Shown: piece by piece, positions 30,691 through 31,366 of the stretch
Numbering within the stretch: the stretch's first letter is position 1
Layout of the letters: the number at the start of each line of letters is the position of its first letter
From: Candidatus Velamenicoccus archaeovorus
Lineage (GTDB): Bacteria > Omnitrophota > Gorgyraeia > Velamenicoccales > Velamenicoccaceae
Direction of reading: 5' to 3'
NCBI RefSeq assembly: GCF_004102945.1
Contig: NZ_CP019384.1
Span: 600,001 to 632,000, forward strand
DNA length: 32,000 nucleotides
Program-made: the position numbers and the translations under genes
The notes under the pieces: model-generated
What the model was told of the DNA's origin: nothing
Database searches by the model: none
Seen by the model: the letters and a program-made list of their open reading frames with translations, nothing else

Positions 30691-31366
30691 ACCCATGAAT
30701 AAAATAGAAAAATTGATCGACAAGTTTTGTCCCAAGGGGATAGAGTTTAAGGAGTTGGGTGAAGTGTTAGATTATGAGCAGCCCACTAACTATCTTGTGC
30801 AATCCACTGAATATGACGATGATTTTGTTACGCCAGTATTAACTGCTGGCCAAAGTTTTATTCTTGGTTATACAGACGAAAATGATGGAATATATAAAGC
30901 GAGCAAAGAAAATCCCACTATTATTTTTGATGACTTCACTACATCATTTCATTGGGTTGATTTTGATTTCAAGGTTAAATCTTCGGCGATGAAAATGCTC
31001 CGACCCGAAAAGAGTGCCGATGTTATTTTTAAATTTATTTACTATGCGATGAAATGTATTGAGTACTCACCTCAAGACCATGCGCGTCATTGGATTTCTA
31101 AGTATTCAAAATTCAAAATCCCCATCCCACCTCTGCCGGTGCAAGAAGAAATCGTCCGCATTCTGGATAAGTTTACAGAACTAGAAGCAGAACTAGAAGC
31201 AGAACTAGAAGCAGAACTAGAAGCAAGGAAGAAGCAGTATGAATATTATCGTACTGAACTGCTGACGTTCAACGAAACAGACAGACAGACAGACAGACAG
31301 ACAGACAGACAGACAGACAGACAGAGTAAGATGGGTAACACTAGGAGAAATAGGGAAGATTGTTAG
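30683..31366 (+). CDS. hsdS: HsdS specificity subunit, 5' half (TRD1 + central conserved region), terminated out of frame after the (ACAG)12 tract
   Basis: The ATG overlaps the hsdM stop (ATGACTAA). TRD-type sequence ([24 protein letters not shown]...), then the conserved [19 protein letters not shown]...[15 protein letters not shown]. After (TDRQ)4 the frame runs 13 codons to a TAG. Confidence 0.85.
31178..31225 (+). repeat. 4 perfect tandem copies of the 12-bp unit GAACTAGAAGCA, encoding (ELEA)4, in the hsdS central conserved region
   Basis: Counted directly: 31178-31189, 31190-31201, 31202-31213, 31214-31225. Confidence 0.95.
31277..31324 (+). repeat. tetranucleotide simple sequence repeat (ACAG)12 inside hsdS
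   Basis: Counted directly: 48 nt, 12 units, located between the TRD1/central region and TRD2. Confidence 0.95.

Follow-up and report, generated by a model that had tools for sequence, protein, structure and literature searches.

The window analysed here, a stretch of 32,000 nucleotides (nt) from the 1.97-Mb genome of Candidatus Velamenicoccus archaeovorus, carries at its 3′ end a type I restriction-modification operon (hsd) in which the specificity gene hsdS is interrupted by the tetranucleotide tract (ACAG)12. The source is given by exact protein matches, as the methyltransferase subunit HsdM is identical to QAT16698.1 and the transfer protein TraH to QAT16697.1 of that genome. Ca. V. archaeovorus is an ultramicrobacterium of the Omnitrophota and a predator of methanogens, known from an enrichment culture that degrades limonene (PMC13153191, PMC12583861).

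The genes of the operon lie on the forward strand. The first, hsdM (29110–30690), encodes a type IC methyltransferase subunit of 526 amino acids (aa; TIGR00497, 762 bits; Pfam N6_Mtase and HsdM_N), and its 3′ end shares 8 nt with the beginning of hsdS. The 5′ part of hsdS (30683–31276) encodes the N-terminal conserved region, the first target recognition domain (TRD1, approximately aa 19–144) and the central conserved region (aa 145–198, KIPIPPLP...LDKF-(ELEA)...). The second domain, TRD2, follows 3′ of the tract together with the distal conserved region, so that hsdS in its full-length form reaches position 31877. The last gene, hsdR, starts at 31864, so that its first 14 nt are also the last 14 nt of full-length hsdS, and runs off the window at position 32000, after 45 codons that encode a typical HsdR N-terminus. 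The order is therefore M-S-R, and hsdM-hsdS-hsdR is the gene order of type IC systems. In relatives the order is M-S-R as well, hsdR likewise overlaps or abuts the hsdS stop, and the downstream gene encodes an HsdR of 1012–1021 aa with HSDR_N, ResIII and EcoR124_C domains; the EcoR124_C domain (PF12008) is present in the HsdR of relatives whose HsdM falls into the window's 90% cluster.

Comparison with solved structures points in the same direction. HsdM scored 639 bits against the EcoR124 HsdM chain 7bst_D (E 5e-191), 323 bits against 3lkd and approximately 59 bits against EcoKI, and HsdS scored 271 bits against EcoR124 7bst_A versus 22 bits against EcoKI HsdS. Within HsdS, TRD1 plus the central conserved region accounted for 196 bits to EcoR124 HsdS residues 4–215 and the distal conserved region for 76 bits to residues 306–398; the central and distal helix motifs of the window HsdS are nearly alike. 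On the basis of these scores, the gene order and a 12-bp repeat in the central helix, we assign the window system to type IC, as an EcoR124-like member.

This 12-bp tandem repeat, CAGAACTAGAAG, occupies positions 31176–31225 of the forward strand in 4.2 copies (100% matches in Tandem Repeats Finder, TRF) and encodes the ELEA repeats of the central coiled-coil helix. In EcoR124I and EcoR124II, the copy number of the corresponding TAEL repeat sets the spacer of the recognition site, N6 versus N7 (PMC3874165). The window repeat has the same unit length, sits in the same helix and differs in copy number from that of the nearest relatives: the spacing from LDKF to RKKQY is 17 aa in the window, 13 aa in L058, P0001 and P0033, and 9–25 aa among the tract-bearing loci described below. 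The 17-aa segment exceeds that of the solved EcoR124 S subunit by four residues and equals the three-repeat state of the Escherichia coli homologue P0045. Judging by these features, the ELEA repeat is a second, in-frame variable element of hsdS and the counterpart of the EcoR124I/II TAEL repeat. Changes in TAEL number stay in frame and alter the spacer, not the length of the subunit, and the ELEA repeat is independent of the ACAG tract and located upstream of it.

The ACAG tract and the integrity of TRD2

The tract itself consists of 12 perfect units at 31277–31324 of the forward strand, between the central conserved region and TRD2. TRF reported it as 31277–31325 with 12.2 copies and 100% matches. 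It is the only repeat with a unit of 2–7 nt within the 32 kb of the window, and a 24-nt ACAG match did not occur in any of 100 dinucleotide-preserving shuffles of the window. We also noticed two 8-nt homopolymers, T8 within the DLFFG codons of hsdM (30305–30312) and an intergenic A8 (2960–2967), and no others in the window; the usual threshold for phase-variable homopolymers is 9 nt, which both fall short of.

Read from the ATG at 30683, the tract is translated as (TDRQ)4, followed by 13 codons and the stop TAG at 31364–31366. The product of the present 12-unit allele is thus a half-length HsdS of 227 aa that ends in an out-of-frame tail (31325–31366) and retains the entire central helix, through LLTFNE. 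TRD2 and the distal conserved region lie in the +1 frame (31326–31877), which is open over 184 codons including the TAA at 31875–31877. Rebuilding alleles of 6–18 units in silico confirmed the frame arithmetic: 8, 11, 14 or 17 units yielded a full-length HsdS of 392–404 aa with both TRDs fused, 9, 12 or 15 units a truncated HsdS with the 13-aa tail, and 10, 13 or 16 units a second truncated state that ends in ...TE* at the TAA of 31327–31329, immediately behind the tract. TRD2 is translated solely when the unit number equals 2 modulo 3, and the fused product contains two Methylase_S stretches (Pfam). The preliminary description of this locus had placed 12 perfect ACAG units between the two TRDs, with a (TDRQ)4 read-through, a stop 13 codons further on and a stop-free TRD2 frame at 31326–31877, and had calculated that 11 or 14 units would fuse the two halves and 10 or 13 would run into a TAA; sequence, TRF, reading frames and in-silico alleles agree with it on each of these counts. 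For the truncated HsdS, no protein on record was found with any of three alternative starts.

Any 4-nt unit encodes the same four codons in rotation, whatever the frame; for ACAG these are permutations of T-D-R-Q, stop-free in all three frames. Among the 48 stop-free tetranucleotide classes ACAG ranks fourth in hydrophilicity, and its complement would encode L-S-V-C. In an alignment with EcoR124 the tract fell into the stretch that connects the central helix to TRD2, and natural alleles in which the tract is in frame (17, 26 and 62 units) likewise put it in the linker. As the unit is polar, stop-free in every frame and located in a linker, any in-frame length would merely extend a tolerable polar linker. 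This hydrophilic, stop-free coding may explain why the ACAG unit is tolerated, and it fits the GCAA tracts (K-Q-A-S) of Atack et al.

The preliminary description had named inactivating changes in TRD2 as a counter-indication to a switch. None were found. TRD2 and the distal region run for 183 sense codons without a stop, a state that none of 20000 shuffles of the segment reproduced, and they are 78–81% identical to the corresponding parts of uninterrupted full-length homologues. The identity is 78–79% to L075, a locus of an Omnitrophota metagenome-assembled genome (MAG) whose HsdM belongs to the window's 90% cluster, and to L069, which encodes P0001. Against these two loci, the ratio of nonsynonymous to synonymous substitution rates (dN/dS) was 0.12–0.13 for TRD2 and 0.08–0.12 for TRD1. 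These values indicate that TRD2 is intact and under purifying selection like that on TRD1, and uninterrupted full-length genes of close relatives (L075/L076, P0001) function with the same TRD2.

The intact TRD2 frame raises the question of whether this half is made as a separate polypeptide that would join the TRD1 half non-covalently, in which case specificity would always be asymmetric. There is precedent, as co-expressed N- and C-terminal halves of EcoDXXI HsdS restore wild-type specificity (PMC3874165). Independent translation of TRD2 was nevertheless rejected, since its frame contains no ATG, GTG or TTG from the upstream stop, three codons 5′ of the tract, to the GTG at 31563, and a start at this GTG would cost approximately 80 residues of TRD2. 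The second open reading frame of NgoAV, moreover, yields no active protein (PMC9577141). We regard a split subunit as highly improbable.

ACAG tracts at the same junction of other hsdS genes

We scanned genome and metagenome collections for tracts of at least four ACAG units with codons for W-x-x-L-G-E/D no more than 30 nt behind them. All 12 matches in the genomes and 42 of the 56 in the metagenomes were located in hsdS at the equivalent place, where a short linker behind ...QYEYYRxxLLTF leads into the tract and the first strand of TRD2 follows immediately. After removal of duplicate contigs, 51 distinct tract-bearing hsdS loci remained, the window and 50 others, from at least seven phyla. 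The genome carriers were a betaproteobacterial MAG, Cardiobacterium valvarum, a Cardiobacterium MAG, two Defluviitaleaceae, Pelotomaculum, Syntrophaceticus schinkii, an Acholeplasmataceae MAG, an Anaerolineae MAG and two Lentisphaeraceae; in hsdM they share 66–72% DNA identity with the window, which places them in the window's family. The nearest relatives, L058, L037 and L077, have the right flank A(G/A)TAAGATGGGTAAC in common with the window and differ in tract length: L058, 86% identical to the window at the DNA level, carries 14 units, L037, which has the window's TRD1, 5 units, and L077, which comes in addition to the 51 loci and whose HsdM lies in the window's 90% cluster, 9 units in a truncated gene that is in the equivalent TE* state with a different left phase.

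Across the tract-bearing loci the unit number ranged from 4 to 62. For the 42 loci with both flanks, the window included and duplicates removed, hsdS was in frame in 18 and out of frame in 24, and TRD2 was open in all 24 of the latter. Pairs of alleles with 99.7–100% identical flanks differed in unit number (11 versus at least 13, 9 versus at least 14, 7 versus at least 8), the last pair being two contigs of one metagenome. This comparison was limited to tracts shorter than 55 nt or located at contig ends, since the 14-unit class is probably a product of assembly collapse at k = 55. A second copy of the window's own allele was not found in the collections.

The longest tract came from an isolate, Cardiobacterium valvarum NCTC13294 (L007, 3334–3581, reverse strand), in which 62 units in frame encode (TDRQ)20.7 as an 83-residue linker of a two-TRD HsdS. 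An open frame of 414 aa 5′ of this tract had suggested a three-TRD HsdS, which we rejected, as the gene in fact begins further downstream and encodes two TRDs. Relatives of the C. valvarum gene in oral metagenomes carried 9, 11, at least 13 or 14 units and several different TRD2 domains. In S. schinkii Sp3 (L006, approximately 2900–3040) we observed 8 units in frame with TRD2, yet a separate frameshift inside the TAEL repeats; translation there gives RNLQRNLQ, with an upstream open stretch of only 58 codons.

A protein search focused on the junction recovered a further 34 HsdS fragments with TDRQ repeats at their ends (P0145–P0201). In 29 of the 34 the tract follows a helix resembling the distal conserved region, not the helix with TAEL/ELEA repeats, and other hsdS subfamilies seem to use the ACAG unit at the equivalent linker. 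A possible decayed tract (PDRQ) in the repeat-free P0001, with the DNA sequence GACAGGCAG inside a GC-rich palindrome, was considered too weak to claim. A full-text search of the literature, which for Atack et al. comprised the main text as distinct from the supplement, yielded no description of ACAG recurring at the hsdS junction.

The proposed switch between half-length and full-length HsdS

Taken together, (ACAG)12 is probably a hypermutable slipped-strand switch between half-length and full-length HsdS specificity. The specificity toggle put forward in the preliminary description is supported as a prediction by the type IC membership, the dN/dS of TRD2, the recurrence of the tract with varied unit numbers and the fact that TRD2 is always kept. 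Replication slippage would add or remove 4-nt units and thereby bring TRD2 in or out of frame. In two of the three frame classes, that of the 12-unit allele and that of 10 or 13 units, the product would be a half-length HsdS consisting of TRD1 and the central conserved helix, which, by analogy with EcoR124I-delta50, EcoDXXI-deltaC and NgoAV, would pair with itself through this helix. The resulting M2(S1/2)2 complex would be directed to an interrupted palindrome built from TRD1 half-sites. Alleles of the third class (8, 11 or 14 units) would encode the full-length HsdS, with (TDRQ)n as a linker, and this protein would recognise an asymmetric bipartite site of TRD1 half-site, spacer and TRD2 half-site. 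A V. archaeovorus population would then hold two methylation and restriction specificities, with random and reversible switching between them; the slippage in this population, the activity of the half-length form and the identity of the two target sites are what we infer from the features of the locus. The preliminary description also likened the locus to a phasevarion, in which a methylation switch alters how a group of genes is expressed; for the window system such a regulatory role would be hypothetical.

Half-length S subunits that work as homodimers have been described for EcoR124I-delta50 (GAA N7 TTC), EcoDXXI-deltaC (TCA N8 TGA) and the natural NgoAV, and such function is known in type IC alone (Loenen et al. 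2014, PMC3874165). The type IC membership of the window system therefore strengthens the proposed mechanism, as this is the only family in which functional half-S homodimers have been shown. EcoDXXI recognises a site with an N7 spacer as the full-length and with an N8 spacer as the deltaC form (PMC3874165). Because the 17-aa segment of the window HsdS corresponds to the three-TAEL state, spacers of N7 for the full-length protein and N8 for the homodimer would be expected by analogy. For the palindrome itself, GAA N8 TTC with a GAA-like half-site is a tentative guess from the resemblance of TRD1.

The closest natural parallel is NgoAV of Neisseria gonorrhoeae FA1090, in which a change of 1 nt in a poly-G tract converts recognition of GCA N8 TGC by the truncated form into recognition of GCA N7 STCA by the fused form (PMC9577141). 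Both systems are of type IC and have a slippage-prone tract between TRD1 plus the central region and TRD2, the half-length HsdS of NgoAV being approximately 208 aa long. The NgoAV tract is a mononucleotide run of G, in contrast to the tetranucleotide of the window, and the C-terminal part of NgoAV is incomplete (PMC3874165), whereas TRD2 of the window is fully intact and under purifying selection. NgoAV is furthermore chromosomal in a host-adapted pathogen, whereas the window system is cargo beside a conjugative cluster in an Omnitrophota predator.

A broader class was delimited in the main text of Atack et al. 2019, according to which simple sequence repeats (SSRs), counted for tetranucleotides from 3 units up, occur in 7.8% of the hsdS genes in REBASE, always between the TRDs, with unit numbers that vary between strains and a predicted switch between full-length and truncated specificity (PMC7383803). 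With 12 perfect units of a length that is not a multiple of 3, the window tract lies within this definition. GCAA[n] tracts of Haemophilus parasuis and Pseudomonas aeruginosa are examples given there (PMC7383803), and they resemble the window tract in being tetranucleotide repeats between TRDs that encode a stop-free polar tetrapeptide (KQAS class); they differ in their unit, ACAG not being named in that main text, and in the phylum of the host. The engineered truncations of EcoR124I (delta50) and EcoDXXI (deltaC, a Tn5 insertion) concern the homologous half and an equivalent truncation point after the central helix. They are, however, irreversible laboratory mutations, whereas the truncation in the window is set by a reversible repeat.

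Stochastic methylation change is also known from invertible hsdS loci, for instance in Streptococcus pneumoniae and Mycoplasma, which change by site-specific recombination between hsdS copies, and from type III mod genes, which undergo ON/OFF frameshifts. The proposed switch shares with both a stochastic and reversible change of methylation in a clonal population. Unlike invertible loci, the window has only one hsdS and neither a recombinase nor inverted hsdS fragments.

A plainer explanation for the window tract would be ON/OFF control, in which the tract slips, the half-length HsdS is inactive and two-thirds of the length classes silence methylation and restriction altogether. According to the main text of Atack et al., type III mod and hsdM genes as a rule switch ON and OFF through their SSRs (PMC7383803), and a large share of clinical genotypes with NgoAV-like loci is predicted to lack an active enzyme (PMC9577141). 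The 13-aa tail and the (TDRQ)4 appendix could hinder assembly, the activity of the window's half-length form being a prediction. The central helix is nevertheless complete in the truncated product, type IC offers three independent examples of such truncations with activity as homodimers (PMC3874165), and the addition of one G to NgoAV, which leads to the other truncated frame, apparently left the methyltransferase unaffected in vitro (PMC9577141). We therefore consider plain ON/OFF control unlikely and specificity switching the better description of the locus.

Truncation might additionally bear on restriction. In the truncated states, ribosomes would stop approximately 500 nt before hsdR, and loss of the coupling through the 14-nt overlap could possibly lower HsdR synthesis, so that these states would be biased towards modification. 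In scans for promoters and terminators between 28500 and 32000, the counts were not above those in shuffles.

Several observations weigh against the proposed specificity switch. The half-length activity and the two specificities are extrapolated from enzymes of E. coli and Neisseria. TRD1 is 84–87% identical to those of P0001, P0020 and P0033 but just 55% identical to the EcoR124-type, GAA-reading TRD1 of P0045, so that the GAA half-site is a guess. Since the window covers just 45 codons of hsdR, restriction by the system is putative, and the window is a single consensus sequence from a non-clonal enrichment culture. The in-frame share of 18 in 42 loci agrees with the one-third expected under free slippage (p = 0.19) and fits neutral slippage and an adaptive switch equally well; without the 14-unit loci, 13 were in and 22 out of frame. 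Seven loci had exactly 14 units, that is 56 nt or k55 + 1, and two contigs that are 100% identical over 6.7 kb carried 14 units (L004, 7284–7339) and 32 units (L060, 6691–6818), the former contig being of the SPAdes type and the latter from the Joint Genome Institute (JGI). Short-read assemblers thus appear to collapse long tracts, and unit counts and frame states at or above the assembler k are unreliable; the window tract, at 48 nt, is under the k = 55 limit.

These assembly effects lead to the possibility that the tract is real but that 12 units is not the dominant or sole length in the culture; the main allele could be in frame, with 11 or 14 units, and the truncated state of the reference a sampling accident. 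The non-clonal source (PMC13153191, PMC12583861) and the mis-assembly of 14 versus 32 units elsewhere speak in its favour. The 48 nt of the tract, on the other hand, are below the usual largest assembly k-mer and below the length of 250-nt reads, and a later PacBio HiFi study reportedly confirmed the genome sequence, although not specifically the hsdS locus (PMC12583861). Such an artefact, which seems rather improbable, would concern the current state alone and would be compatible with the switch model.

The random in-frame share can also be read as a sign that the tract is a neutral microsatellite, an accident in a tolerant linker, or marks an incipient pseudogene in the decay of dispensable mobile-element cargo. 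The hsd operon is accessory, its place being taken by a Fic gene and an insertion sequence (IS) in the related element L078, close relatives with the same TRD2 (L075/L076, P0001) have no tract, and in a few loci (L002, L015) the tract shows interruption or decay. Neutral decay is difficult to reconcile with a complete, open TRD2 in every out-of-frame locus, with the failure of any shuffle of the window TRD2 to be stop-free and with a dN/dS of TRD2 as low as that of TRD1. Nor would unselected accidents be expected to produce twelve perfect units here and to place one unit at an identical codon-level position in at least seven phyla. We hold this explanation to be very unlikely, and switching of specificity by slippage to be the probable function of the tract.

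A further-reaching proposal is that ACAG/(TDRQ)n constitutes a common switch module, carried along by the conserved region of type IC hsdS genes as this recombines. Horizontal transfer would have brought it into at least seven phyla, mostly of free-living anaerobes, and into the Omnitrophota predator on conjugative-element cargo, and switching between half- and full-length HsdS would be general in environmental type IC systems and not peculiar to host-adapted pathogens. We put this forward tentatively, as it is on balance rather doubtful. In a Smithella MAG, the HsdS P0033 has its N-terminus in common with the window HsdS (30683–31132), and its TRD1 is 87% identical. Smithellaceae share the limonene enrichment with V. 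archaeovorus (PMC12583861). The similarity of the two sequences hints at an exchange of hsdS modules within such communities.

Conjugative neighbourhood and biological meaning

As had been supposed in the preliminary description, a conjugative element adjoins hsdS. The window contains F-type transfer genes 5′ of the hsd operon, encoding TraG_N, a coupling protein, TraE, TraB/TrbI, TraV, TraC, TraU, TraF and TraH. Within this tra cluster lies a type IVb pilus module (15499–23483) with a secretin, a PilB-like ATPase, a PilC-like platform protein and a PilS-like prepilin, which is an unusual mixed architecture for an Omnitrophota conjugative element. A TacA-like antitoxin and a GNAT acetyltransferase toxin form a pair on the reverse strand (24355–25804) between the pilus genes and traU. 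Among the transfer genes (1208–2790 and 8842–9516) we also found a radical-SAM/B12-binding protein, a protein with the AIG2-like gamma-glutamyl cyclotransferase fold and an NYN-domain protein.

The sister element L078, from another data set, is 95% identical to the window over 9749–24295 and 90% identical over 25230–28585. It lacks the toxin-antitoxin insert, with no counterpart of window positions 24296–25229; it is collinear with the window as far as the 3′ end of traH, after which it carries a Fic gene and an IS (rve) element (L078 17918–21641) in place of hsdMSR (window 28586–32000). This replacement at the hsdMSR position indicates that the hsd operon, which borders the transfer region, is cargo that can be exchanged. 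A megablast search of the hsd region against the plasmids in PLSDB gave no matches. The 500-nt gap between traH and hsdM contains a hairpin with a 19-bp stem followed by a T-run (28760–28802), possibly a terminator between the tra operon and the hsd cargo; overall, the scan did not exceed shuffle expectation.

The class of switch proposed here is already known, from experiment for NgoAV and from the REBASE survey of Atack et al. 2019, and the window fits it in its tract and gene anatomy. New are the host, a predator of a candidate phylum, the position as cargo beside a conjugative cluster, and the repeated occurrence, in many phyla, of a single unit at a single junction within one family. A practical consequence concerns annotation, as the tract lengths of such hsdS genes, and hence their 'pseudogene' calls, often reflect assembly artefacts in MAGs built from short reads. 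If the proposed switch operates, a near-clonal population of an uncultivated ultramicrobial predator would keep two restriction and methylation specificities at once, which would affect the phages, plasmids and prey DNA that it tolerates as well as the movement of its own conjugative element. Epigenetic bet-hedging, which has been studied almost solely in pathogens, would thereby extend to candidate phyla and to anaerobic digesters.

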